From positions 9,605 to 73,604 of the forward strand of contig JAWOEG010000019.1 in the NCBI GenBank assembly GCA_046482875.1: a stretch of 64,000 bases of DNA, read 5' to 3'. Below, piece after piece: positions 178-43,130 of the stretch; positions within the stretch are counted from its first letter, which is position 1, and the number at the start of each line of letters is the position of its first letter. A program made the position numbers and the translations under genes. This stretch comes from Eubacteriales bacterium. Lineage in GTDB: Bacteria; Bacillota; Clostridia; Tissierellales; Dethiosulfatibacteraceae. The notes below the pieces were generated by a model. That model did not search any database. It was not told where the DNA came from and saw only the letters and a program-made list of their open reading frames with translations.

Positions 178-199
178 TTTAGATAATTAAATATTATGC

Positions 200-417
200 T
201 ATGACAAAGAGGAGTAGTTGTATAAACTTTAAGAGATTGGATTAAATAGCTGAAAAAATCCATAAGTAAATGTACAATGAAGGTAGCTTTAGAGCATGTA
301 ATCTGAAATAAAGTAGGATTATACGGATATTTCCGTTACAAATTAAGAGCCAAATTGGAACTAAGGTGGTACCGCGGGTAATCTCGTCCTTAAAAAGGAT
401 GAGATTACCCGTTTTTT
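200..417 (+). promoter_or_regulatory. T-box riboswitch leader, probably Val-specific, with intrinsic terminator
   Basis: Conserved T-box sequence AAGGTGGTACCGCGGG at about 364-378. It overlaps the terminator stem GGGTAATCTCGTCC/GGATGAGATTACCC (376-410), which is followed by GTTTTTT. The upstream stem I region has AGAGA and GCTGAAA elements and GTA (Val) codons in the expected specifier region (TAAGTAAATGTACAA). valS lies downstream. Confidence 0.85.
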
Positions 418-645: not shown

Positions 646-3288
646 ATGGAAAATTTAGCTAAAAAATACAACCCAAAAGATTTCGAGGATAGAATATACA
701 AGATGTGGGAAGAAAATGGTTACTTTAAGGCAGAAGCTAATAAAGATAAGGAACCTTTTACTATTGTTTTACCACCACCTAATATTACAGGACAGCTTCA
801 TATGGGACATGCATTAGACCATATACTTCAAGATATCTTAATCAGGTGGAAAAGAATGGACGGATATGAAGCATTATGGCTTCCTGGAACTGATCATGCA
901 AGCATTGCTACAGAAGTGAAGGTAGTAAAAAAATTAAGAAGAGAAGGAATAGAAAAAGATCAAATAGGCAGAGAAAAATTTCTTGAAAAAGCATGGGAAT
1001 GGAAAGATGAATACGGTGGTAGAATAACAGATCAGATGAAAAAGCTGGGGAATTCTTGCGATTGGTCAAGAGAGAGATTTACAATGGATGAAGGATGCAG
1101 CAAAGCGGTAAATGATGTTTTTGTAAAACTTTATGAAGAAGGATTAATTTATAGAGGAAATAGAATTATAAATTGGTGTCCTGACTGTCTTACTTCTTTA
1201 TCAGATATAGAAGTTGAACATGAAGATAAAGATGGTAATTACTATTATGTTAAGTATCATTTCGTAGATAATAAAGATGAATACTTTACAATAGCTACCA
1301 CAAGACCGGAAACTATATTTGGAGATACAGCTATAGCTGTACATCCTGACGATGAAAGATATCAAAAATACATCGGAAAGAAAGTTATTGTACCCCTGGT
1401 AGGAAGAGAAATAGAAATTATAGCTGATGAATATCCAGATATGGAAAAAGGTACTGGAGCCTTAAAAATAACACCATCCCACGACCCTAATGATTTTGCT
1501 ATTGGCAAAAGACACGACTTAGAAGAAATTTCCTGTATAGATGAAAAAGGTGTAATGAATTCTTATGCCGGCAAATACAAAGGAATGGATAGGTATCAGT
1601 GTAGAAAGGCTTTTGTAGAAGACTTAAAATCAAATGATTTAATAGTAAAAATTGAAAAAAATAATCATTCTGTAGGTACTTGCTACAGATGCAATACGGT
1701 AATAGAACCTAGGATATCTGATCAGTGGTTTGTAAAAATGGAACCATTAGCTGGACCAGCTATAAAAGCAGTAAAAGATAGTAAAACCAAATTTATCCCG
1801 GAAAGGTTTGATAAGATATACTTCCACTGGCTTGAAAATATAAGAGATTGGTGTATTTCAAGACAGCTATGGTGGGGACATAGGATACCTGCATACTATT
1901 GTCAGGATTGTGGAGAAACAATAGTTGCTAAAAAACCACCGGAAAAATGCACGAAATGTGGAAGTGAAAACTTAAATCAAGACGAAGACGTTTTAGATAC
2001 TTGGTTTAGTTCGGCATTATGGCCTTTTTCAACATTAGGATGGCCAGAAGAAACAAAAGATTTAGAATATTTTTATCCTACTAATGTATTGGTAACAGGA
2101 TACGATATTATTTTCTTTTGGGTTGTAAGGATGATGTTTTCTGGTTTAGAGCATATGAATGAAGTACCCTTCAAACATGTTTTAATACACGGATTGGTAA
2201 GAGATGCACAGGGAAATAAAATGAGTAAATCCCTAGGAAATGGAGTAGACCCATTAGAAGTAATTGATGAATATGGAGCTGATGCCCTTAGATTTATGTT
2301 GATAACAGGCTTAACACCGGGGAATGATACAAGATATCAAGTAGACAAACTTGAAGCTAGTAGAAATTTCGCAAACAAACTGTGGAATGCATCTAGATTT
2401 GTACTAATGAACTTAAAGGAAGACGAAGAATTAACTCCAAATATTAAAACCTTAAAAAACGAAGATAAATGGATGCTTTCAAGAATGAGTAAGGTGACAG
2501 AAGAAATAAATAAAAATTTAGAAAATTTTGATTTAGGATTGGCTCTACATAAGATATATGATTTTATCTGGAATGAATACTGCGATTGGTACATAGAATT
2601 AGTTAAGCCGAGATTGTACGGAGACAATAAAGAAGACAAACAAAATTCTCTTTATGTACTGGTGAACATAATGAAAGATATGCTTAAACTACTTCATCCA
2701 TTTATGCCATTTATTACTGAAGAGATATGGCAGAATTTACCGGGGAATGATGAACCACTTATCATAAGCCAATGGCCAAAAGTAAAAATAGAAAATAAAT
2801 ACCAAAAATCAGTAGAAGAGATAAACTTTGCTATGGAGATAATAAAAAGCATAAGAAATATTAAGGCGGAAATGGATGTTAAACCATCTAAAACAATAAA
2901 TGGATACTTTATTCCTAAAAATAAAAAATATAAAGAGTATCTAAAAAGTATAGAAAGGCACCTTAATAATTTGATTAATCTAGAAGAAATGACTATATTG
3001 GAAAATAAAGATATAATAGATGAAGATACAGCATCAGCGGTAATCGATGGTTTAGAAATTTATCTTCCATTATCCGAACTTATAGATTTTGAAAAAGAAA
3101 AAGAAAGACTGGAAAAAGAAAAAGAAAAACTAGAATCTGAGATAAAAAGAGCCGAAGGAAAATTAAAGAATAAAAGTTTTGTAGAAAAGGCTCCTGTAAA
3201 GATTGTAGAAGAAGAAAGAGAGAAGTTAAAAAAATATAAAGATATGTATGATAAGGTATTAAGCAGGATAAAACAAATAAATAGTTGA
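646..3288 (+). CDS. valS: valine--tRNA ligase
   Basis: 880-aa ORF with the class I HIGH motif (PPPNITGQLHMGHAL), KMSKS (GNKMSKSLGNG), CP1 editing-domain features and a C-terminal coiled coil (EKEKERLEKEKEKLESEIKRAEGKLKN). GGAGGG RBS upstream. Confidence 0.97.
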   Translation: MENLAKKYNPKDFEDRIYKMWEENGYFKAEANKDKEPFTIVLPPPNITGQLHMGHALDHILQDILIRWKRMDGYEALWLPGTDHASIATEVKVVKKLRREGIEKDQIGREKFLEKAWEWKDEYGGRITDQMKKLGNSCDWSRERFTMDEGCSKAVNDVFVKLYEEGLIYRGNRIINWCPDCLTSLSDIEVEHEDKDGNYYYVKYHFVDNKDEYFTIATTRPETIFGDTAIAVHPDDERYQKYIGKKVIVPLVGREIEIIADEYPDMEKGTGALKITPSHDPNDFAIGKRHDLEEISCIDEKGVMNSYAGKYKGMDRYQCRKAFVEDLKSNDLIVKIEKNNHSVGTCYRCNTVIEPRISDQWFVKMEPLAGPAIKAVKDSKTKFIPERFDKIYFHWLENIRDWCISRQLWWGHRIPAYYCQDCGETIVAKKPPEKCTKCGSENLNQDEDVLDTWFSSALWPFSTLGWPEETKDLEYFYPTNVLVTGYDIIFFWVVRMMFSGLEHMNEVPFKHVLIHGLVRDAQGNKMSKSLGNGVDPLEVIDEYGADALRFMLITGLTPGNDTRYQVDKLEASRNFANKLWNASRFVLMNLKEDEELTPNIKTLKNEDKWMLSRMSKVTEEINKNLENFDLGLALHKIYDFIWNEYCDWYIELVKPRLYGDNKEDKQNSLYVLVNIMKDMLKLLHPFMPFITEEIWQNLPGNDEPLIISQWPKVKIENKYQKSVEEINFAMEIIKSIRNIKAEMDVKPSKTINGYFIPKNKKYKEYLKSIERHLNNLINLEEMTILENKDIIDEDTASAVIDGLEIYLPLSELIDFEKEKERLEKEKEKLESEIKRAEGKLKNKSFVEKAPVKIVEEEREKLKKYKDMYDKVLSRIKQINS

Positions 3289-3337
3289 TTTTTTATTAAA
3301 AGTGTAATAAACTTTTGATTGTTGTAATTAAATATTT

Positions 3338-3476
3338 CTCGTATAAATTTGGCAATAAGGGTCAAATGTTTCTACAAACTACCGTAAATAGTTACAGGCT
3401 ACGAGTTCTGAACAAAAATTAATTTTTGTGTTAATTTTGTTATGAACTCTGCTTTTGCAGAGTTTTACTTTTTTAT
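3338..3476 (+). promoter_or_regulatory. purine riboswitch (guanine/xanthine class) with terminator expression platform
   Basis: The aptamer at 3338-3405 (CTCGTATAAATTTGGCAATAAGGGTCAAATGTTTCTACAAACTACCGTAAATAGTTACAGGCTACGAG) contains the conserved TATAA, GTTTCTAC and CCGTAAAT cores and a closing P1 helix CTCGTA/TACGAG. The discriminator position reads C (GGCTAC), as in guanine riboswitches. A terminator AACTCTGC-TTTT-GCAGAGTT plus T-tract follows at 3445-3476. Confidence 0.85.
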
Positions 3477-3488
3477 AAAGGAGAATGT

Positions 3489-4055
3489 ATGGAATTATTG
3501 GAGCAGAAGATTTTAAAAGAAGGGAAAGCATTAGGAAATAATATTGTTAAAGTTGATTCTTTTCTAAATCATCAGATAGATATCAATCTTTTGAAAAGTA
3601 TTGGAAAAGAGTTTCACAAAAGGTTTGAAGAAGATAACATAACAAAGATTTTAACAATTGAAGCATCAGGAATAGCAATAGCAAGTATTACAGCTTTGTA
3701 CTTTAATGTTCCCGTGGTTTTTGCTAAAAAAACTCAATCTTTGAATTTAGATGAAGACGTATATACTAATAGAGTATATTCCTACACTAAAGAAAAGTAT
3801 TATGACATTAAAGTTTCAAAAAAATACCTAAATGAAGAAGATAACATTTTGATAATTGATGATTTTTTAGCAAGAGGACAAGCGGCATTAGGACTTTATA
3901 ATATTGTAAAACAGAGCAAAGGAAATGTAAAAGGAATCGGTATAGTTGTAGAAAAAGGATTCCAAGATGGTAGGAAGCTACTACTGGAAAAAGAAATAAG
4001 ATTAGAATCATTAGCAATAGTTAAAAAAATCCAAAAAGGAAAAATAATTTTCTAA
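3489..4055 (+). CDS. xpt: xanthine phosphoribosyltransferase
   Basis: The 188-aa N-terminus MELLEQKILKEGKALGNNIVKVDSFLNHQID is typical of Xpt. PRPP-binding loop ILIIDDFLARG. The gene sits directly behind a purine riboswitch, as in Bacillus xpt. Confidence 0.9.
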   Translation: MELLEQKILKEGKALGNNIVKVDSFLNHQIDINLLKSIGKEFHKRFEEDNITKILTIEASGIAIASITALYFNVPVVFAKKTQSLNLDEDVYTNRVYSYTKEKYYDIKVSKKYLNEEDNILIIDDFLARGQAALGLYNIVKQSKGNVKGIGIVVEKGFQDGRKLLLEKEIRLESLAIVKKIQKGKIIF

Positions 4056-26672: not shown

Positions 26673-27950
26673 TTATATTTCTTGAGGTAAAACTTTATTG
26701 AGTACTACCCCTATTAACGCTGCTAATGCAAGGCCTGATAGAGAAAGAGTACCACTAATGAATATGTTATCAACGGTTATTCCTAAGACTAGAATTAAAG
26801 ATGAAATTAGAAGGTTTCTACTGTGAGCAAAATCTAAATTTGCGTCCACCATTGTTCTTACGCCTACACTTGCAATCATTCCGAAAAGAATAATTGAAAC
26901 TCCACCCATTACAGGGAGAGGTATAGAACTTATAAGTGCTCCAAATTTACCTACGAAACTTAATATTATTGCAAATACTGCTGCAAATCTAAGAACAGAA
27001 GGATCGTATACTTTTGTCACTGCTAAAACTCCCGTATTTTCACTGTAGGTAGTATTTGCTGGTCCACCAAGAAATCCTGCTAATATAGTAGCAATTCCGT
27101 CTCCCATCATTGTTTTATCTACACCGGGATCTTTGAAAAAATCTTTTCCTACAACTGCTCCATTTGTTGTAATATCTCCAAAGTGTTCAATAAATATTAC
27201 TAGTGCTATGGGAGCAATAGCAGCTAATCCTGGTCCTGAAAAGCTAGGCATTGTAGTAATATGATCTACAGCCTTTTCTGAAAGTCCAATCCATTTAGCA
27301 TCTAAAACTGTAGAAAAGTTTACCAGGCCTAGAGGGATTGATACAATATAGCCAACTGTTACAGATATTAATATAGGTACTAATTTGAAAAAGCCTTTCG
27401 AAAATATTGAAACTACAATCATAGTTGTTATAACTACGCCAGCTGCAATAGCTGATTTAGGATCGAAGTAGCCTAAGGATGAACTACCATCGTATACATA
27501 GCCTGCCATACCTAATGCAACAGGAGCTAACCTTAAACCTATAACCATTATAACCGGGCCTGTTACGATAGGTGGGAAAAAAGATCTAACTTTTTCTACA
27601 CCAAAAATTTTAATAATGAAAGACATTAAAACATAAATTATTCCTGCGCCGATAATTCCTGATTTAACAGCTGCGATGCCGTGATTGTTAAGAGTAAGTG
27701 CTATGGCTCCTATGAAGGCAAAACTCGAACCTAAAAAAACAGGCACTTTTTTTCCAGTTATAAAGTGAAAAATTAAAGTACCTATACCTGCACACAAAAG
27801 GGCCATGGATGGATCAAGTCCTGTCAAAATCGGAACCAAAACTGTAGCCCCAAACATTGCTAGCAAATGTTGTAAACCTAAAATTGTTTTTTGAACATTA
27901 TCAAGATTTTGTGCTATACTTTTTGATGTGTTTTCTTTTAATGATGACAT
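26673..27950 (-). CDS. pyrP: uracil (NCS2 family nucleobase) permease
   Basis: 425-aa polytopic protein with NCS2 signatures (QHLLAMFGATVLVP, TYSENTGVLAVTKV). It is preceded by a PyrR-type attenuator, which favours uracil specificity. Confidence 0.85.
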   Translation of the reverse strand: MSSLKENTSKSIAQNLDNVQKTILGLQHLLAMFGATVLVPILTGLDPSMALLCAGIGTLIFHFITGKKVPVFLGSSFAFIGAIALTLNNHGIAAVKSGIIGAGIIYVLMSFIIKIFGVEKVRSFFPPIVTGPVIMVIGLRLAPVALGMAGYVYDGSSSLGYFDPKSAIAAGVVITTMIVVSIFSKGFFKLVPILISVTVGYIVSIPLGLVNFSTVLDAKWIGLSEKAVDHITTMPSFSGPGLAAIAPIALVIFIEHFGDITTNGAVVGKDFFKDPGVDKTMMGDGIATILAGFLGGPANTTYSENTGVLAVTKVYDPSVLRFAAVFAIILSFVGKFGALISSIPLPVMGGVSIILFGMIASVGVRTMVDANLDFAHSRNLLISSLILVLGITVDNIFISGTLSLSGLALAALIGVVLNKVLPQEI

Positions 27951-27980
27951 AAAAAAACCTCCTAATTAAATTTTGGAGAT

Positions 27981-28070
27981 AAAAAAGACTTCTTGTAGAC
28001 ACAAGAAGTCGATAATTGCTTCATTATTTATCTCCTTGTAAGTCTCACTGGACTAAATTAAAGGAATATT
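27981..28070 (-). promoter_or_regulatory. PyrR-binding transcription attenuator (anti-antiterminator hairpin plus terminator)
   Basis: The minus-strand RNA reads UCCUUUAAUUUAGUCCAGUGAGACUUACAAGGAG (28031-28064). This closely matches the PyrR binding-loop consensus (A/G)UCCAGAGAGGCU...AAGG. It is followed by the terminator GACUUCUUGU-GUCU-ACAAGAAGUC plus UUUUUU (27981-28010), then the RBS GGAGG of the permease. Confidence 0.75.
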
Positions 28071-35389: not shown

Positions 35390-35859
35390 AAATTGGTATA
35401 GGATACGATGTTCATGAATTAGTCCCAGATAGAGATTTGATGATTGGTGGGATTAAAATAGAACATCCAAAAGGATTAAAAGGTCATTCAGATGGTGACG
35501 TACTTTTACATGCTGTAATAGATGCTTTATTAGGAGCCTTAGGAAAAGAGGATATAGGTACTTTATTTCCGGATAATGATACAAAGTACAAGGATATTGA
35601 CAGTAAAATACTTCTAGAGGAAGCTAATAAATTAATGAAAGAATCTAAATTTAAAGTAGGTAATTTAGATTGTATTATAATAGCTGAAAGACCTAAAATG
35701 AGTGAGCATATAAGCAAAATGAAGTCAATCATATCCAAAATATTAAAAACATCAGAAAAAAACATTAATATAAAAGCAACCACTACAGAAGGATTAGGAT
35801 TTACAGGTAGAGAAGAAGGAATAGCTGCACAATGCGTCCTACTTCTTGACAATAAGTAG
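35386..35859 (+). CDS. ispF: 2-C-methyl-D-erythritol 2,4-cyclodiphosphate synthase
   Basis: 157 aa with IGIGYDVHEL, GHSDGDVLLHAV and ATTTEGLGFTGREEGI motifs. Confidence 0.95.
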   Translation: MKIGIGYDVHELVPDRDLMIGGIKIEHPKGLKGHSDGDVLLHAVIDALLGALGKEDIGTLFPDNDTKYKDIDSKILLEEANKLMKESKFKVGNLDCIIIAERPKMSEHISKMKSIISKILKTSEKNINIKATTTEGLGFTGREEGIAAQCVLLLDNK

Positions 35860-35889
35860 AAATTTTAGTAAACTTTTATAAATGAATAT

Positions 35890-36092
35890 AATAGCTATGA
35901 GAAGAATAGTAGATAGTACATGTCTAAAGAGAGGAAATGATGCTGGAAATTTTCCGACCTCTGTATTATTGAACCTAACTTTGAGCTTTCAGGCAAACCT
36001 GAACGGTAGTACCGATATAACTAAGAGTGACTTGTAAAAGAGTAACTAGAGTGGTACCGCGGATATCCGCCTCTTGATGGAGGCGGTTTTTT
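35890..36092 (+). promoter_or_regulatory. T-box riboswitch leader, Pro-specific (CCU specifier)
   Basis: Stem I has AGAGAGG and GCTGGAA elements. The specifier-loop context is TTGAA-CCT-A, with CCT at 35974-35976. The T-box sequence AACTAGAGTGGTACCGCGG lies at 36044-36062. The terminator is CCGCCTC (36067-36073) / GAGGCGG (36080-36086) plus TTTTTT. proS lies downstream. Confidence 0.88.
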
Positions 36093-36117
36093 AATACTAA
36101 AAATAAAGGAGTAGGAT

Positions 36118-37560
36118 ATGGGTAAAAAGAAAAGTTTTGTAAAAGAAATAACACCAATGGAAGAAGACTTTGCTAGATGGTATACGGACATTATTATTAA
36201 AAATGAATTAGTAGATTATTCTCCAGTTAAAGGGTTTATGGTTATTAGACCATATGGGTATGCTTTATGGGAGAAGATACAGGGATTTGCAGATAGAAGA
36301 TTTAAAGAGACAGGTCATAAAAATTGTTATTTTCCACTGCTTATACCTGAAAGTTTATTAAATAAAGAAAAAGATCATGTAGAAGGATTTGCTCCAGAAG
36401 TGGCATGGGTAACTCACGGAGGAAGTGAAAAGCTTGGAGAAAGATTATGCGTAAGACCGACCTCTGAAACAATCATATGTAACATGTACAGTAAATGGTT
36501 AAATTCATACAGAGACTTGCCTTACCTATATAATCAGTGGTGTTCAGTAGTTAGATGGGAAAAATCTACTAGACCCTTTTTGAGAACTTCAGAATTCTTA
36601 TGGCAGGAAGGGCATACCCTTCACGAAACTAATGAAGAAGCTCAAGAAGAAACCCTACAAATGCTTGATATATATAGAGAAGTAGCTGAGGATTTACTGG
36701 CTATACCTGTTATTACCGGTAAAAAGAGTGAAAGTGAAAAATTTGCAGGAGCAGAGTCTACTTATACAATGGAAGCTATGATGCACGATGGACAGGCTCT
36801 TCAGTCCGGTACATCTCATAATTTATCACAGCATTTTACTAAGGCATTTGACATAAAATATTTAGGAAGAGATGGAAAAGAGCATTATCCTTACCATACA
36901 TCCTGGGGAATATCCACAAGATTGATAGGTGGATTAATAATGGTCCACAGCGATAACAGAGGACTTGTATTACCTCCAAGAGTAGCACCAACTCAAGTTG
37001 TTATTATACCTATAGCTATGAAGAAAGAAGGAGTACTTGAAAAAGCAGAAGAACTTTATGAAAGTTTAAAGGCAAGAGGAATAAGAGTAGAGCTAGATGA
37101 TGATCCTAAAGAATCTCCTGGTTGGAAATTTAATCAATATGAAATGAAGGGATATCCTATTAGAATAGAAATAGGACCTAGAGACATTAAAAATAATAGT
37201 GCTATTATGGCAAGAAGAGACACTTTTGATAAAGAGAAGATTTCTCTGGATAATTTTTCAGAAACTGTCCTAGATACATTAGATACAATGCAGCAGGATT
37301 TATTCAATAAAGCTAAGAAATTTAGAGAAGATAATACATTTGAAGTAAAATCTTATGAAGAATACAAAGCTCATGTAAAAGATAAAAAAGGTTTTGGAAA
37401 AGCAATGTGGTGTGGAAGTAAAGAATGTGAAGCTAAATTGAAAGAAGAAACTGGAGCTACTATTAGGTGCATACCTTTTGAACAGGAAAAAACCAGCGAC
37501 ACATGTCATTTATGCGGTAAAGAAGCAAAGCATATGATTTACATAGCTAAAGCTTATTAA
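36118..37560 (+). CDS. proS: proline--tRNA ligase, archaeal/eukaryote-like type (no INS editing domain)
   Basis: 480 aa. The N-terminus FARWYTDIIIKNELVDYSPVKGFMVIRPYGYALWE is typical of this type. Class II motifs are present (RPTSET, FLRTSEFLWQEGHT). The C-terminal Cys-rich Zn domain ends in ...IAKAY, the terminal Tyr characteristic of this ProRS type. Confidence 0.93.
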   Translation: MGKKKSFVKEITPMEEDFARWYTDIIIKNELVDYSPVKGFMVIRPYGYALWEKIQGFADRRFKETGHKNCYFPLLIPESLLNKEKDHVEGFAPEVAWVTHGGSEKLGERLCVRPTSETIICNMYSKWLNSYRDLPYLYNQWCSVVRWEKSTRPFLRTSEFLWQEGHTLHETNEEAQEETLQMLDIYREVAEDLLAIPVITGKKSESEKFAGAESTYTMEAMMHDGQALQSGTSHNLSQHFTKAFDIKYLGRDGKEHYPYHTSWGISTRLIGGLIMVHSDNRGLVLPPRVAPTQVVIIPIAMKKEGVLEKAEELYESLKARGIRVELDDDPKESPGWKFNQYEMKGYPIRIEIGPRDIKNNSAIMARRDTFDKEKISLDNFSETVLDTLDTMQQDLFNKAKKFREDNTFEVKSYEEYKAHVKDKKGFGKAMWCGSKECEAKLKEETGATIRCIPFEQEKTSDTCHLCGKEAKHMIYIAKAY

Positions 37561-37576
37561 AGAAAAGGTGATTTAA

Positions 37577-39202
37577 TTGAAATTAAAGAATAATTATTTA
37601 AATATGTTAAAAGAGCTGCCTAAGTCTATAGAATCAAGAAGCGGGCAGCTTCTTGTTAAATTAGGAATTATAAAAAAACATGGTAAAGGAATATATTTTT
37701 TTACACCCTTTGGGTTGAATTTGCTTAATAATGTAAAAGAAAAATTCAAAGAAAAACTTGTTAAAGAGAACTTTGCAGAAATCGATACACCTATCATTAA
37801 TTTGAAGAATAATTTTAATGAAAAAGGATATTTTGAATCAAAGGATATAGATGGGAAATCCTACCTAACTAGAGGTCCGGATTTATATTTATATGATGAT
37901 TATTTAAAAAACATAATTAAATCATATAAAGATTTACCAGTAGAGTATTACTATTTTAATAAAAAAGCTAACAACGACAATAAAGCTAATGAAGAATTAC
38001 TAAATCCAATGGCAACTGAAATATATAAATCTTTTTCTGCTTTATCAAATGAAAACTACGAAGAAAAGATAAATAAATACAAAGAACAAAGTTTGAATTT
38101 TTTAAAATGTTTTGGTATAAAACCTACTATCATTAGAAAACACAAAGATTCTCAAGGGATAATCTACGGTTGGCTTAGCAAAAAAGGTAGGGAAAAGGCA
38201 GCCTATTGTCCTCAGTGTAAAAAATATTACGATATTGAATACATGGGAATAGGTAGTTATACAAGAGAATATGAAGAGCTTAAAGAGTTAAAGAAGATAA
38301 AAACACCTAGTATAAAAACTATAGAAGATTTACAAGAGTTTACAAATGCTGATATTAAAAAACTTATAAAAGCTGTTTTGTTAAAGGTAGTTGACAAAAA
38401 CTACGTAATTTTTATAAGAGGTGATAGGGAATTAAGCAAGGTAAAGCTTGCAAAACTGATTAAAAGTGACGAAAACCTAATCAGACAAGCATCAGAAGAA
38501 GATTTAGAAGATATGGGAACTACAGGAGGATTTGTAGGACCAATTGGGCTAAAAAATTGCCAAATCTTAGTAGATGAAGAAGTAAGATATATAAAAAATG
38601 GAATTGCCGGAGCTAATGAAGAAGATTACCATATGGAAAACATTAACTACGATAGAGATTTTAAAGGTAGTGTATGTGGCGATATTGTTGTAGCTAATGA
38701 AAAGGATTTATGTGTTGAATGTAGTTCAAACATAGAAATTCATAACTACTATAAAATAGGTGAATTAAAGGGTGATACTGAAATCTGTGATGGAGTAACG
38801 GATATAAAATATATTGATAGAACAGGAAAAGAAAATTCAATATACAAAATAGAAAATTTATTAGATTTATACAAAACAATATCAGTTTCTTTAGAAGAAA
38901 AAGAAGATAATTTATTAAAATTGATTCCTTGGGATATACATATTTTATTATTAAAAACTGATGATGAAGACAGCATCATATTAGGAGATAAGATATACAA
39001 TATTTTAAAGAATAATGGTAGAAAACCTCTTTTGGATGATAGAAATATGAAAGTAGGACATAAATTTAAAGAAGGAGAATTACTAAATATAAATGAAAAG
39101 ATAATAGTAGGGCGAAGAGCCAAAGAAGGTATAGTAGAATATCAAAACAATGAAGATGATAAAAAAATCGAAATTACACTAGAGGATATAGATAAGTTAT
39201 AA
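37577..39202 (+). CDS. bacterial-type ProRS paralog with a recognisable INS/YbaK-like editing domain and anticodon-binding domain but degenerate class II catalytic motifs (putative pseudo-synthetase / trans-editing factor)
   Basis: TTG start behind AAGGTGA. The N-terminus resembles bacterial ProRS (LKELPKSIESRSGQLLVKLGIIKKHGKGIYFFTPFGLNLLNNV). Where motif 2 (FRDE..RPR.G..R..EF) is expected, the sequence is YYYFNKKANNDNKANEELLNPMATEIY. Where motif 3 (GxGxGxxR) is expected, it is IENLLDLYKT. The central segment IKAVLLKVVDKNYVIFIRGDRELSKVKL...GFVGPIG...IAGANEEDYH looks like an intact INS editing domain. Confidence 0.7.
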   Translation: MKLKNNYLNMLKELPKSIESRSGQLLVKLGIIKKHGKGIYFFTPFGLNLLNNVKEKFKEKLVKENFAEIDTPIINLKNNFNEKGYFESKDIDGKSYLTRGPDLYLYDDYLKNIIKSYKDLPVEYYYFNKKANNDNKANEELLNPMATEIYKSFSALSNENYEEKINKYKEQSLNFLKCFGIKPTIIRKHKDSQGIIYGWLSKKGREKAAYCPQCKKYYDIEYMGIGSYTREYEELKELKKIKTPSIKTIEDLQEFTNADIKKLIKAVLLKVVDKNYVIFIRGDRELSKVKLAKLIKSDENLIRQASEEDLEDMGTTGGFVGPIGLKNCQILVDEEVRYIKNGIAGANEEDYHMENINYDRDFKGSVCGDIVVANEKDLCVECSSNIEIHNYYKIGELKGDTEICDGVTDIKYIDRTGKENSIYKIENLLDLYKTISVSLEEKEDNLLKLIPWDIHILLLKTDDEDSIILGDKIYNILKNNGRKPLLDDRNMKVGHKFKEGELLNINEKIIVGRRAKEGIVEYQNNEDDKKIEITLEDIDKL

Positions 39203-39279
39203 TTTTTTAATTAAAAAAACATTCAAAAACCACATGATTATATGATATAATCTTCATACTAATGCTAAAGGAGAGCTAT

Positions 39280-41115
39280 ATGATAAAAAAAACAATTTTG
39301 ATATTAATATCTATGATACTTATAATCTCTACAGGATGCTCAAATAATGATGAAGAGCCTAATCCAGGAGAAGAAAATACTACTCCACCAGCCCTAGAAA
39401 ACGGTGAAGAGGAACCGGAAGAACCGGAAGAAGAACAACCGACAGAAGAAGAATTAGCACAGATGGCTTATGATGAATATCTAGAAGAATTAGAAACTTT
39501 AGAAAATGATAGAACAGAAACCTTGGGAAAATTCTATATTAAATTACCTGAATTGTCCTTTGAAGAATTTAAAAATAAAGATGAACCTAAGGAAAAAGTT
39601 GAAGCAAAGGGACTATTTTTTACGGGGAGTTCAGCTGGAATGGGTCTAGATGATGAAGACATACAAAATTATGCAGCCTATGTGAAAGCACTAGGAGAAG
39701 GTGACCAGGGAAAAATCAACGAGTTACTGCCTTTAATAGATGGAGTAAATAGATTTGAAAGAGCCGTTGCTTTAGCAATAGAGACAGAGGTTAATGCCTT
39801 TGTTATAGACGTAAAAGATGACAGCGGTTTTATGACTTACGAAAGTAGTTTAGAAATAGTAGAAGAAGTTAATGGAAACAGAGGAGTAAGGATTAAGGAT
39901 GTTGAAGGAATGCTTCAAACCTTAAAAAAATACGATATATATACAATAGCAAGGATTGTAACATTTAAGGACGAAAACTTTGCTGTTCAAAAACCAGACC
40001 ACTCTATACAGCTTAAAAACGGTGGCGTTTGGAAAGACTACAGCGGGACATCATGGGTTAATCCCTTTGATGAATACGTATGGGATTACAATATAGCTAT
40101 TGCAAGAGAAGCAGCATTAAAGGGATTTGATGAAATACAGTTTGACTATGTAAGGTTTCCCGATAATGCTATAGTATACAATCCCATAACACATTTTCCA
40201 GGAAGAAACGACAGGGAAAAGGACGAAGCAATTGGAGATTTTCTGAAGTATGCTGAAAAGGAATTAGTTGATTACAATGTTTTTACTGCAGCGGATGTTT
40301 TTGGTTTAATAACTAAGGGATGGGATGATTTTCCTGAAGATATTGGACAAAGCTGGATAGAAATGGCACCATATGTTGATTATATGTGTCCAATGGTATA
40401 TCCAAGTCATTATGGAGAATGGTGGTACGGATATGAGGCGCCGGATGCCCATCCTTATGGAGTTTTAAAGGGATCCATGGAAGAAGCATTAGAGAAAAAT
40501 GCAGCAATTGAAAACGACTCTTTAATTAGACCGTGGATACAGGGCTTTACTGCTGGCTGGGTAGAAGGACATATATACTATAGTCCAAGTAAGATAAGGG
40601 ATCAAATACTAGCATCAAAAGAACTAGGAATCGATGAATACCTAATTTGGGCTCCCGGTAATACATACGATCCGAGAATATTTTTCCCGTCGGAAGAGGA
40701 AAAAGCTACAACCTATCCTCTTGAAACAGGAGATAAAGACCTGGTTGGTCGAACACCGGCAGATGCTGTTTATGAGTACTTAAGTGCTGAAAGAAACGAC
40801 ACCATTAGTATGGTTTACCTACTTACTCCAATTGACGATAGAGTTCAAAACTTTAAAGAATTTTATAAAAATTATAAATCTTTAGGCTTTGAGTTGAGTG
40901 ATTACGAAGTGATGGAATATGATATATACGATGAAAATAAAGCTAATGTTAACTTATCCTATCAATATAAAATACTAGGTGAAGAAGTTGAAGAAGAAAA
41001 ATTCATAGAAGCGACAGATACATCGTGGCAAACTATTAAAGAAAAAGGTGTATGGAAGGTTAAATCTGAAATAGAAAGTGAAATAGAAACATTTAAAAAT
41101 ACTGCAGTTGAATAA
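39280..41115 (+). CDS. DUF4015-type putative glycoside-hydrolase-like lipoprotein
   Basis: The start is placed at ATG 39280 (MIKKTILILISMILIISTGCS, lipobox), behind AGGAG, and is followed by an acidic E/P-rich linker. The core with VNAFVIDVKDDSG, IARIVTFKD, QFDYVRFP and MCPMVYPSHY matches the uncharacterised TIM-barrel family DUF4015. Confidence 0.7.
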   Translation: MIKKTILILISMILIISTGCSNNDEEPNPGEENTTPPALENGEEEPEEPEEEQPTEEELAQMAYDEYLEELETLENDRTETLGKFYIKLPELSFEEFKNKDEPKEKVEAKGLFFTGSSAGMGLDDEDIQNYAAYVKALGEGDQGKINELLPLIDGVNRFERAVALAIETEVNAFVIDVKDDSGFMTYESSLEIVEEVNGNRGVRIKDVEGMLQTLKKYDIYTIARIVTFKDENFAVQKPDHSIQLKNGGVWKDYSGTSWVNPFDEYVWDYNIAIAREAALKGFDEIQFDYVRFPDNAIVYNPITHFPGRNDREKDEAIGDFLKYAEKELVDYNVFTAADVFGLITKGWDDFPEDIGQSWIEMAPYVDYMCPMVYPSHYGEWWYGYEAPDAHPYGVLKGSMEEALEKNAAIENDSLIRPWIQGFTAGWVEGHIYYSPSKIRDQILASKELGIDEYLIWAPGNTYDPRIFFPSEEEKATTYPLETGDKDLVGRTPADAVYEYLSAERNDTISMVYLLTPIDDRVQNFKEFYKNYKSLGFELSDYEVMEYDIYDENKANVNLSYQYKILGEEVEEEKFIEATDTSWQTIKEKGVWKVKSEIESEIETFKNTAVE

Positions 41116-42332: not shown

Positions 42333-42339
42333 AATACTT

Positions 42340-42578
42340 AATATCGTTGAATAAGGAAAGTAGTGTATAATGAAAATTTAGAGAGAGTATTTGTTTGGTG
42401 AAAAAATACTTATTGAATTTATATACGAAGTGCCCTTAAGAGATGCAGGTTGAAATTAGTAGGCTAGGCCGGAGTCCTCCGTTAAAAGGATATAGTATGA
42501 TAGTACTTAAAGTAGGGTTTAAATCAATTAGAGTGGAACCGCGGATAATCTCCGTCTCTTGTAAGAGGCGGAGTTTTT
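42340..42578 (+). promoter_or_regulatory. T-box riboswitch leader upstream of cysE (likely Cys, specifier not unambiguous)
   Basis: Stem I has AGAGAGAG and GGTGAAAA elements. The candidate specifier context is CGAAGTGCCC, which contains TGC. The T-box sequence AATTAGAGTGGAACCGCGG at 42526-42544 reads GGAACC where the usual form is GGTACC. The terminator is CTCCGTCTC / GAGGCGGAG (42550-42573) plus TTTTT. Confidence 0.8.
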
Positions 42579-42605: not shown

Positions 42606-43130
42606 ATGAATTTTATAAGTAAAATAAAATTAGATATAAAAAGAGCCTTAGAAGTTGATCCAGCAGCAAGAAATTCTTTGGAAATATTGTTATTGTATCC
42701 TCATATAAAAGCATTAATAATTCATATATTAACCCACTTTCTATACAAAAAGAAATTGTTTTTTTTATCAAGGTTGATTTCTAATTTTGCTAGATTTCTT
42801 ACAGGAATAGAAATACATCCTGGTGCTCAAATAAGAGAAGGCCTATTTATAGATCATGGAATAGGGGTTGTGATTGGAGAAACAGCTGTGATAGGCAAAA
42901 ACGTTCATATGTATCACGGAGTTACTTTAGGAGGTACAGGGAAAGAAAGAGGGAAAAGGCATCCTACTATAGGAGATAATGTTATTATTGGAGCTGGAGC
43001 TATATTATTAGGTAATATAAAAATAGGCGAAGGAACTAAAGTAGGAGCAAATGCTGTAGTTTTAGAAGATACCAAACCTTATACAACTGTAGTGGGAGTT
43101 AAAGCCAAAGAAGTTAAAAAAAGAGGATAA
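42606..43130 (+). CDS. cysE: serine O-acetyltransferase (short form)
   Basis: 174 aa. Hexapeptide-repeat left-handed beta-helix ([46 protein letters not shown]) with a SAT-type N-terminus ([15 protein letters not shown]). Confidence 0.9.

Follow-up and report, generated by a model that had tools for sequence, protein, structure and literature searches.

A bacterial-type prolyl-tRNA synthetase, probably displaced by an archaeal-type enzyme, as a candidate anticodon-guided Ala-tRNA(Pro) deacylase

Bacteria whose prolyl-tRNA synthetase (ProRS) has no functional INS editing domain have a separate protein that deacylates Ala-tRNA(Pro) (PMC10164551), and all free-standing members of the INS superfamily are single-domain proteins according to a 2024 review (PMC11295145). 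One of them, ProXp-ala (PrdX), acts as a second sieve in organisms such as Clostridium sticklandii (PMC10164551) and recognises its tRNA by the acceptor stem (G72/A73). INS editing by E. coli ProRS needs recognition of G35/G36 by the anticodon-binding domain and not of the acceptor stem (PMC3973320, PMC11295145); how the two domains cooperate is, by the account of the 2024 review, poorly understood (PMC11295145). The Lys equivalent to E. coli K279 is strictly conserved in the superfamily and essential (PMC10164551). Charging and editing are divided between two genes in crenarchaea, where ThrRS-cat charges without editing. Its partner ThrRS-ed (NF011500, Ser-tRNA(Thr) hydrolase), a protein of the same synthetase-family origin with an editing domain and an anticodon-binding domain of class IIa, takes no part in charging and removes mischarged tRNA in trans (PMC3592468, PMC7373986, PMC11295145). 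In Anabaena (ThrRS T1/T2), one ThrRS paralog charges with low fidelity and charging-inactive subunits of the other edit in trans (PMC4787780). Bacillus thuringiensis carries both a bacterial-type (P-type) ProRS1 and an archaeal/eukaryote-type (E-type) ProRS2, each an active synthetase (PMC11229370).

The window analysed here, a stretch of 64,000 nucleotides from an Eubacteriales bacterium, carries two adjacent genes related to proS behind a T-box leader (Table 1). The leader scores above the RF00230 gathering threshold, its specifier loop (GAA-CCU-A, ahead of proS) designates proline and fits the regulated gene, and the terminator overlaps the T-box sequence; the proline T-box that the first-pass annotation had placed ahead of the pair is thus borne out. 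Across five related loci the leader is 94% identical and its specifier invariant. When positions 35700-39400 were scanned for terminators, none was found besides that of the T-box, and none between the two genes; this and the 16-nt gap suggest that they are co-transcribed. Promoter-like matches in this region showed no excess over shuffled sequences, and gene 2 may have an internal promoter.

Table 1. Features of the two-gene locus, in positions of the window
Feature	Position	Strand	Evidence
Promoter-like site TTGACA-17-TAAACT, 5' of the T-box leader	35846-35874	+	Consensus scan, 10/12; pattern match only
T-box leader	35888-36077	+	RF00230 match, 103.6 bits (gathering 93); specifier CCT at 35974-35976
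T-box intrinsic terminator	36067-36092	+	Hairpin 36067-36086, 8-bp stem with 6 GC pairs, then T-run
Gene 1, archaeal/eukaryote-type (E-type) ProRS without INS, 480 aa	36118-37560	+	TIGR00408 and Pfam
Ribosome-binding site and TTG start of gene 2	37564-37579	+	Read from sequence; AAAGGTGA at 37564-37571; 16 nt past gene 1 stop
Gene 2, 541 aa	37577-39202	+	Colinear with bacterial ProRS
N-terminal part of class II core, degenerate, aa 1-235	37577-38281	+	Alignment; dN/dS 0.11-0.18; motif 2 remnant at 37952-38023
INS editing domain, aa 236-365	38282-38671	+	PF04073, 71.2 bits (gathering 25.5), aa 243-358; codons of K265 at 38369-38371, G318-P322 at 38528-38542, H352 at 38630-38632
C-terminal part of class II core, degenerate, aa 366-450	38672-38926	+	Alignment; dN/dS 0.18-0.22; motif 3 remnant at 38849-38878
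Class IIa anticodon-binding domain, aa 451-541 and stop	38927-39202	+	PF03129, 34.8 bits

Gene 1 had been read as an archaeal/eukaryote-like ProRS without INS, and this holds: the protein scores 635 bits against TIGR00408 (proS_fam_I, cut-off 437), and the Pfam search returned tRNA-synt_2b, HGTP_anticodon and ProRS-C_1 (PF09180, 87.5 bits) with no match to tRNA_edit (PF04073). It shares 72-80% identity with ProRS of Sedimentibacter, Tissierellales and Peptostreptococcales, and its dN/dS is 0.02-0.03. Some archaeal-type ProRS enzymes reportedly deacylate Ala-tRNA(Pro) themselves, which counts against a need for gene 2 as an editor.

Gene 2 has a G+C content of 27.1%, below that of its neighbours. 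Its ribosome-binding site, spacing and TTG start are conserved in four related loci (L002-L005), and its N-terminus (MKLKN.YL) aligns with the MKLS... of working ProRS. In agreement with the domain order first proposed, the protein aligns end to end with the ProRS of S. aureus (5znj) and E. faecalis (2j3l) as core, INS, core and anticodon-binding domain. AlphaFold2 predicts with confidence that it has the fold of a full-length bacterial ProRS (pLDDT 85.2, low at aa 72-101 only; pTM 0.84) with 2j3l as its best Foldseek match (TM 0.77). The alignments to NF006625 and TIGR00409 also run end to end, with scores of 233.5 and 155.7 bits below the respective cut-offs of 558 and 306.7. The only Pfam matches are tRNA_edit (aa 243-358) and HGTP_anticodon (aa 463-538); tRNA-synt_2b (PF00587) was not detected by this search. 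Two assignments were rejected: the bacterial-type proline--tRNA ligase equivalog, because of these sub-threshold scores and the loss of catalytic elements, and YbaK (TIGR00011, Cys-tRNA(Pro) deacylase), with 17.8 bits against a cut-off of 153.25.

When mapped to E. coli ProRS, 11 of the 12 catalytic-site residues checked are replaced or deleted in gene 2. The motif 2 region has given way to FNKKANNDNKANEELLNPMATEIY, with R140, E142, R151 and R153 of the E. coli enzyme corresponding to N132, D134, N143 and M145; T109 and E111 of the TxE loop correspond to P101 and L103; the GGSxSHEF segment is deleted; GHIFQLGTKY has become GELKGDTEIC; and G442, G445, G447 and R450 of motif 3 correspond to I425, L428, D430 and K433 within the remnant IENLLDLYKT, which has no G.G.G..R. 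The alignment thereby upheld the earlier observation that motifs 2 and 3 are replaced. Motif 1, the dimer interface, is retained (SYKDLP). From this loss of residues, gene 2 would be expected to make no Pro-AMP and to charge no tRNA.

The editing site of gene 2 retains all eight residues of the E. coli reference: T257 (T243 in gene 2), I263 (I249), L266 (L252), K279 (K265), G336xxxP340 (G318FVGP322), D350 (D333) and H369 (H352). Of these, the equivalents of I263, L266 and H369 presumably define an Ala-sized pocket. The segments IKAVLLK, GGFVGPIG and AGAN..H, which had been taken as editing signatures, are in place. The PF04073 score above gathering, the Lys, the GxxxP and the ProRS-INS residues place the protein in the INS/YbaK superfamily, and INS is its most conserved domain at every level of divergence. 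In the anticodon-binding domain the LLDDRN..G.KF motif is retained; in the family of the window the GIP motif has become NIN, which counts against the reading proposed below.

We think it reasonably probable, judging from sequence, that a bacterial ProRS was displaced by the archaeal-type enzyme and survives in gene 2 as an anticodon-guided Ala-tRNA(Pro) deacylase. Gene 2 would then be a pseudo-synthetase descended from the lineage's own bacterial-type ProRS and kept for proofreading: the archaeal-type proS would have taken over charging, after which the resident bacterial proS lost its synthetic site and retained editing. We infer both this order of events and the deacylase activity, Ala specificity and anticodon-guided mode of the protein. 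Every computational check that the first-pass annotation had called for gave the predicted outcome. It is proposed that i) the anticodon-binding domain anchors tRNA(Pro) via the anticodon, ii) the class II core, though dead, provides dimerisation and a scaffold and sets the distance of INS from this anchor, iii) Ala-tRNA(Pro) that leaves the editing-less archaeal-type ProRS is hydrolysed in the intact INS pocket, and iv) since both genes lie behind one proline T-box, proofreader and synthetase would rise together as tRNA(Pro) charging falls. The dependence of INS editing on the anticodon-binding domain, known from E. coli ProRS, may explain why the whole protein is retained.

In functional class, not by homology, the locus belongs with the split synthetase/editor systems, as synthetase-derived editing and anticodon domains without a synthetic site are encoded beside an editing-less ProRS. 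Like the crenarchaeal ThrRS pair it comprises two genes, one for charging without editing and the other for a synthetase relative with editing and class IIa anticodon-binding domains; trans-editing is a demonstrated activity of ThrRS-ed and a predicted one of gene 2. It differs in the amino acids concerned (Pro/Ala instead of Thr/Ser), in the editing fold (INS/YbaK instead of DTD-like), in the domain of life and in the retention of the entire dead core; moreover, genes 1 and 2 are of E-type and P-type architecture, apparently joined by displacement, and not halves of one gene. With ProXp-ala, gene 2 shares the predicted substrate and role, the fold of its editing domain and the invariant Lys, but it is a four-part ProRS relic of 541 aa with dead core and anticodon-binding domain, outside the single-domain format (~150-200 aa), and is expected to read G35/G36 like the cis-acting INS (PMC3973320). 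The first-pass claim of a distinct solution therefore stands within the INS superfamily (PMC11295145), whereas the general idea has a precedent in ThrRS-cat/ThrRS-ed (PMC3592468, PMC7373986). Canonical P-type ProRS (E. coli, E. faecalis, S. aureus) share domain order, fold, INS site, anticodon domain, motif 1 and chromosomal position with gene 2, which has lost their ATP-binding, proline-binding and catalytic residues. Anabaena T1 is a fully functional synthetase, inactive only under the condition of low zinc, and works through heterodimers, whereas gene 2 has suffered a permanent, genetic loss and is not known to form a heterodimer. Compared with the two active synthetases of B. thuringiensis, the present locus looks like a later stage, at which P-type charging has been given up.

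The gene pair and the Pro T-box are conserved in seven relatives (L002, L004, L007, L009, L010, L017 and L018), and the arrangement recurs in five species-level MAG lineages. A sister lineage (L016) has the identical gene order without gene 2, which is therefore dispensable or replaceable. An exhaustive profile search yielded at least ~80 clusters (at 50% identity) of degenerate-core ProRS proteins, cultured Clostridia included, and among its best 150 matches 81 of the 144 full-length representatives combined a degenerate core with 7-8 of the 8 editing residues. The retention of columns conserved in working ProRS was 0.88 for INS, 0.91 for the anticodon domain, ~0.9 for motif 1 and 0.41 for each core half; in 54 diverse members, Pfam detected tRNA_edit and HGTP_anticodon in every one and tRNA-synt_2b in 20. 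The catalytic INS residues are near-invariant in members otherwise only 25-30% identical, and the catalytic-site replacements differ from lineage to lineage. In related Clostridia working bacterial proS directly follows ispD/ispF; the degenerate copies lie in this slot or in that before gltX-cysE-cysS, usually the slot of working proS. Displacement with a retained editor probably occurred several times across Clostridia. The co-occurrence expected of the pair held in the relatives, but many clostridial degenerate-core genes do not adjoin an archaeal-type gene, those of Clostridium amazonitimonense, L020 and Petromonas among them. In Inediibacterium massiliense and Cand. Petromonas the degenerate protein may share a contig with an E-type ProRS. 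An editing-less partner of the degenerate gene is shown for some lineages only.

An active deacylase need not act on Ala-tRNA(Pro). Very similar active sites in the INS superfamily have varied specificities (PMC11295145), and several members go by the name 'YbaK/EbsC family protein' at NCBI. The substrate might be Cys-tRNA(Pro), which YbaK clears, one of the Ser/Thr- or aminobutyryl-tRNAs on which other ProXp families act, or tRNA(Pro) charged with a proline analogue. We regard this as unlikely, as gene 2 descends colinearly from a ProRS INS, falls far below the YbaK cut-off, and belongs to a set in which the I263, L266 and H369 equivalents are kept or conservatively changed in all 54 diverse members.

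Rates of evolution bear on two further readings. The relatives compared had dS of 0.7-2 and hence are not assembly copies of one genome; dN/dS of gene 2 was 0.11-0.18 overall, lowest in INS (0.06-0.09) and 0.11-0.22 in the dead core. It is rather unlikely that gene 2 is a non-catalytic tRNA(Pro) binder whose INS pocket only binds the CCA end. Such a protein might act as a chaperone or in sequestration, regulate charging or T-box read-through, or form an obligate structural complex with the E-type ProRS. The retained anticodon domain and motif 1, the co-regulation with proS under a tRNA-sensing leader and the precedent of LeuRS-I and LeuRS2, synthetase paralogs that bind tRNA without charging (PMC9437257), would suit such a role, but the near-invariance of the INS catalytic residues is what selection for catalysis predicts, and INS is the slowest-evolving domain. 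That gene 2 is a decaying leftover of bacterial proS is very improbable, even though it evolves about five times as fast as gene 1 (identity 60% against 91% in L010 and 32% against 81% in L017), is low in G+C and is absent from L016; its ORF is intact and of conserved length in all relatives, start and ribosome-binding site are conserved, the editing residues are invariant and the model is confident. Since it is under purifying selection it is not decaying, and dN/dS together with conservation effectively refutes a pseudogene. That gene 2, by means of some unconventional active site, still works as a ProRS or ligates amino acids to another acceptor is hardly credible despite the full-length fold and several public records that say 'proline--tRNA ligase', as the motif 2 arginines, motif 3 and the other catalytic elements are replaced or deleted, the replacements vary between lineages and a competent ProRS is encoded immediately upstream.

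The preferred reading of gene 2 as an anticodon-guided Ala-tRNA(Pro) deacylase can be extended, tentatively and at slightly less than even chances, to a large unrecognised class, 'ProRS-ed': full-length pseudo-synthetases of Clostridia, and perhaps of other groups too, which would have arisen repeatedly upon displacement of P-type by E-type or INS-less ProRS and in which the INS pocket, anticodon domain and dimer interface alone would be under strong selection. If true, this would add a new kind to the trans-editing factors that serve proline codons, guided by the anticodon instead of the acceptor stem; extend to bacteria, and to ProRS, the split arrangement of crenarchaeal ThrRS; and explain the two apparent 'proS' genes of many clostridial genomes. 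The degenerate-core proteins would then be natural separation-of-function mutants in which the cis-editing architecture outlives synthesis. With dozens of independently diverged members they are a natural experiment on what editing alone requires of ProRS, and the parts that emerge are INS and the anticodon domain together with motif 1 and a Cys4 element. Genes 1 and 2 would record the displacement of an essential gene by a foreign analogue without its loss. The cultured hosts (Oxobacter pfennigii, Inediibacterium massiliense and Clostridium amazonitimonense) open the hypothesis to direct testing.

No description of degenerate-core ProRS of this kind was found in the searchable literature. Gene 2 is not a one-off, as it belongs to a large and diverse clostridial set. 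Public labels for its members are mixed ('proline--tRNA ligase', 'YbaK/EbsC family protein' and 'tRNA ligase C-terminal domain-containing protein'), so that ProRS may be miscounted in annotation, completeness estimates and essential-gene inference.

The paralog encoded by gene 2 had been described in the first-pass annotation as a bacterial-type (P-type) ProRS that keeps the editing domain (INS) but has lost its synthetic site. The bacterial domain order was borne out by full-length phmmer alignments to the S. aureus (5znj) and E. faecalis (2j3l) ProRS among PDB sequences, and bacterial ProRS models span the protein end to end, with scores below half of their cut-offs. Of the Pfam families named, tRNA_edit and HGTP_anticodon were matched, while the class II core model, tRNA-synt_2b, gave no match. 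When residues were mapped against the E. coli proS product, the motif 2 residues R140, E142, R151 and R153 corresponded to N132, D134, N143 and M145, T109/E111 of the TxE loop to P101/L103, and G442/G445/G447/R450 of motif 3 to I425/L428/D430/K433; the GGSxSHEF segment is deleted and GHIFQLGTKY has become GELKGDTEIC. The synthetic site is thus gone, as had been claimed. The editing site is complete, with T257, I263, L266 and K279 present as T243, I249, L252 and K265, and G336...P340, D350 and H369 as G318...P322, D333 and H352. Motif 1 (SYKDLP), the class II dimer interface, is retained. An AlphaFold2 model based on a 56-sequence alignment was confident (pLDDT 85.2, pTM 0.84), being weak at aa 72–101 alone, the site of the lost TxE region, and its top structural matches were full-length bacterial ProRS (2j3l, TM 0.77). 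Two CxxC pairs, C211/C214 (38207-38218) and C379/C382 (38711-38722), flank the INS insertion. Working Clostridial ProRS have these pairs conserved, as do about 85% of the degenerate-core representatives described below, whereas E. coli ProRS lacks them; by their look, they form a zinc-binding element where INS emerges from the core.

The Pro T-box annotated ahead of the ProRS pair was recovered with a specifier loop GAA-CCU-A (proline codon at 35974-35976), and its terminator is the sole terminator-like site within 35700-39400. Gene 1 contains the domains tRNA-synt_2b, HGTP_anticodon and ProRS-C_1, with no editing domain detected by Pfam, and is a normal archaeal/eukaryote-type (E-type) ProRS, in agreement with its earlier description as complete and lacking INS. 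Gene 2 starts, as annotated, 16 nt past the gene 1 stop, at a TTG preceded by AAAGGTGA. With so few nucleotides and no terminator between the genes, gene 2 is probably co-regulated with gene 1 by the Pro T-box. Two other origins were rejected: i) gene 2 is not a tandem duplicate of gene 1, since the two are only 25% identical, along 111 aa of their anticodon domains, and ii) the T-box was not inherited from a resident bacterial proS, since the regions upstream of the closest working proS genes of bacterial type gave no T-box, and the leader therefore belongs with the E-type gene. Downstream lies a gene for a 617-aa DUF4015-family protein (39262-41115, + strand) whose N-terminus is lipoprotein-like and whose linker is rich in Glu and Pro. 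This gene is always directly 3' of the proS locus whether or not the degenerate gene is present; no terminator separates it from gene 2, and 39222-39251 resembles a promoter.

Features of the window and lone degenerate-core ProRS genes in the ancestral proS slot of other genomes
Feature	Source	Position	Strand	Match or remark
T-box leader (second)	window	192-394	+	120.6 bits; upstream of valS
valS	window	646-3288	+	NF004349, 1270 bits
Purine riboswitch	window	3319-3421	+	ahead of xanthine phosphoribosyltransferase, 3489-4055 (+)
PyrR-binding leader	window	27979-28068	-	ahead of uracil permease, 26673-27950 (-)
Pro T-box leader	window	35888-36077	+	Rfam, 103.6 bits (gathering score 93)
T-box terminator hairpin, then T-run	window	36067-36086	+	
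Gene 1, E-type ProRS, 480 aa	window	36118-37560	+	TIGR00408, 635 bits (cut-off 437)
Gene 2, degenerate-core ProRS, 541 aa	window	37577-39202	+	Pfam tRNA_edit aa 243-358, HGTP_anticodon aa 463-538
T-box leader (third)	window	42338-42562	+	116.5 bits; upstream of cysE-type gene
cysE-type serine O-acetyltransferase	window	42606-43130	+	TIGR01172, 230.7 bits
Lone degenerate-core ProRS	L019, C. amazonitimonense CCFK01000015.1	6001-7686		ispD-[gene]-cysS
Lone degenerate-core ProRS	L020	6001-7638		ispD-[gene]-cysS
Lone degenerate-core ProRS	L021, Cand. Petromonas JAALLO010000038.1	5995-7620		just before gltX-cysE-cysS-mrnC-rlmB

A first homolog search recovered nine 90%-identity clusters of exactly the gene 2 type (59–100% identity), below which identity fell sharply to 31%, the level of working Clostridial ProRS. 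Among GTDB species representatives, five carry gene 2, and each of them is a MAG from uncultured Clostridia. The TTG start, the RBS and the N-terminal MKLKN.YL are conserved among relatives, as is, wherever the flank suffices, the order radA-carD-yacL(PIN/TRAM)-ispD-ispF-[Pro T-box]-proS(E-type)-gene 2-DUF4015-asd; between these loci, leader identity reaches 94% and the specifier is invariant. The dN/dS values (Nei-Gojobori, window genes against three relatives) were 0.11–0.18 for gene 2 overall, 0.06–0.09 for its INS, 0.11–0.18 for the dead N-terminal core and 0.18–0.22 for the dead C-terminal core, and 0.02–0.03 for gene 1. The G+C content of gene 2 is 27.1% versus 34.2% for gene 1, while the two are similar in third-position G+C (0.196 versus 0.216), which suggests that relaxed constraint lets the amino-acid composition of the dead core drift to residues with AT-rich codons, such as Lys, Asn and Ile.

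An exhaustive search of 1.84 billion cluster representatives with a profile of nine close relatives of gene 2 gave 3290 matches at E<=0.001. Full-length proteins among the best 150 of these were aligned to E. coli ProRS and scored at 12 catalytic and 8 editing positions. The core was degenerate (<=8/12 catalytic residues) in 81 of the 144 full-length representatives, with <=5/12 in 72, counts that come from the top 150 matches to a profile which itself favours degenerate members. Within this set, all degenerate-core representatives kept 7–8 of the 8 editing residues, save two outliers with 5–6. At columns where 60 working representatives showed a conservation of 85% or more, retention in the 72 degenerate ones was 0.88 for INS, 0.91 for the anticodon domain and just 0.41 for each core half, the core survivors being motif 1 (~0.9) and the four INS-bracketing cysteines (~0.85). 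Among 54 diverse degenerate members, tRNA_edit and HGTP_anticodon were matched in every one and tRNA-synt_2b in 20; the invariant columns were T243, K265, G282, G318, P322, D333, G345, N347, H352 and D361 in INS and D487 and R489 in the anticodon domain, with none elsewhere. Degenerate and working sequences were intermixed in a rough neighbour-joining tree built on the INS and anticodon-domain columns, and a profile of the 54 members ranked working Clostridial ProRS first, with no new degenerate members among the matches listed; this crude tree and ranking would be compatible with several independent degenerations of working ProRS.

Carriers include Oxobacter pfennigii (WP_054876794.1), Clostridium amazonitimonense, C. 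simiarum, other Clostridium spp., Inediibacterium massiliense (WP_053955619.1), Cand. Petromonas and a Tissierellia MAG. Of the loci returned by a metagenome scan with the single Petromonas protein, one was degenerate and 17 encoded working ProRS. Two degenerate-core clusters bear non-Clostridial taxon labels, P0254 (Cand. Eremiobacterota MEQ8225773.1) and P0275 (Caulobacteraceae MAG MGE5629795.1); both are doubtful carriers, reflecting either a binning error or a reach of the type past Clostridia. Database records disagree on what to call the protein, with 'YbaK/EbsC family protein', 'proline--tRNA ligase' and 'His/Gly/Thr/Pro-type tRNA ligase C-terminal domain-containing protein' all in use. 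For example, WP_032123646.1 of C. amazonitimonense is labelled proline--tRNA ligase, yet keeps only 3 of the 12 scored catalytic residues.

For the closest bacterial proS genes that are working, the position is directly 3' of ispD/ispF, with the radA...ispD neighbourhood shared. This slot is also that of the degenerate copies. The degenerate copy is just 3' of the inserted E-type proS in the window lineage and at the related loci L017 and L018, stands alone between ispD and cysS in C. amazonitimonense and at L020, and directly precedes gltX in Petromonas. These locations support the inference that the degenerate copies are the lineages' own housekeeping proS, freed from charging by another ProRS. 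In Inediibacterium and Petromonas, the longest-contig sizes listed for the E-type ProRS and for its degenerate counterpart are equal, and solely on this ground the two may be on one contig. Locus L016 of a sister lineage (GCA_964539975.1, CAZIKK010000001.1, 6001-9323) has the ispF-proS(E-type)-DUF4015-asd order of the window lineage, with no degenerate ProRS in the ~100-nt gap after the E-type proS; the gene was either lost or never present. In Sedimentibacter, the E-type proS is at another location and no degenerate copy was found nearby. At L005 (2-873; ENA ERZ27257085 k141_897313), the E-type proS that precedes the degenerate copy was called as 229 aa plus 51 aa, owing either to a frameshift or to faulty assembly of that contig.

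ProRS misactivates Ala, and in the bacterial enzyme Ala-tRNA(Pro) is cleared by INS. Bacteria without a functional INS in ProRS depend on a separate deacylase, ProXp-ala (PMC10164551). Unlike ProXp-ala, INS owes its tRNA specificity to the reading of G35/G36 by the anticodon-binding domain (PMC3973320, PMC11295145). In an anticodon-guided, editing-only ProRS, as gene 2 may be, the INS pocket, the anticodon domain and the dimer interface would all have to be intact, and the dead core between them would have to keep its structure; the retention pattern matches these needs. Because of this fit, a trans-acting Ala-tRNA(Pro) deacylase, the role first proposed for gene 2, would be its likeliest function, and we hold it to be fairly probable. 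Neither tRNA genes nor a second INS-like gene were found within the 64-kb window. A deacylase for a different substrate is unlikely, and a non-catalytic tRNA-binding protein slightly more so. A decaying pseudogene without conservation, which the first-pass annotation had raised against its own proposal, is highly improbable: the overall dN/dS is low and the gene order conserved, and gene 2 is not a pseudogene. Residual ligase activity, given the replaced motif 2 and motif 3 residues, hardly merits consideration.

According to a 2024 review, the INS superfamily comprises INS and eight free-standing families, with members other than INS being single-domain proteins (PMC11295145), and the sole ProRS paralog in a 2022 review of synthetase paralogs is ProRSx (PMC9437257). 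Full-text searches of open-access literature and preprints turned up no account of a ProRS that is full-length but catalytically dead. The concept of a synthetase-derived trans-editor is itself already known: crenarchaeal ThrRS-ed, which has an anticodon-binding domain, serves the editing-less ThrRS-cat (PMC11295145, PMC3592468, PMC7373986), and in Anabaena ThrRS the T1 subunits edit on behalf of T2 (PMC4787780). In B. thuringiensis, P-type and E-type ProRS are both active (PMC11229370), presumably an earlier stage.

The window contains further leaders (see the table). The specifier region of the T-box upstream of the cysE-type gene, ACGAAGUGCCC, probably reads UGC (Cys), with an ambiguous frame, and this T-box is conserved at the related loci L007 (10761-10985) and L010 (10749-10969). 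That of the valS T-box, AUGAAGGUAGCU, fits GUA (Val).
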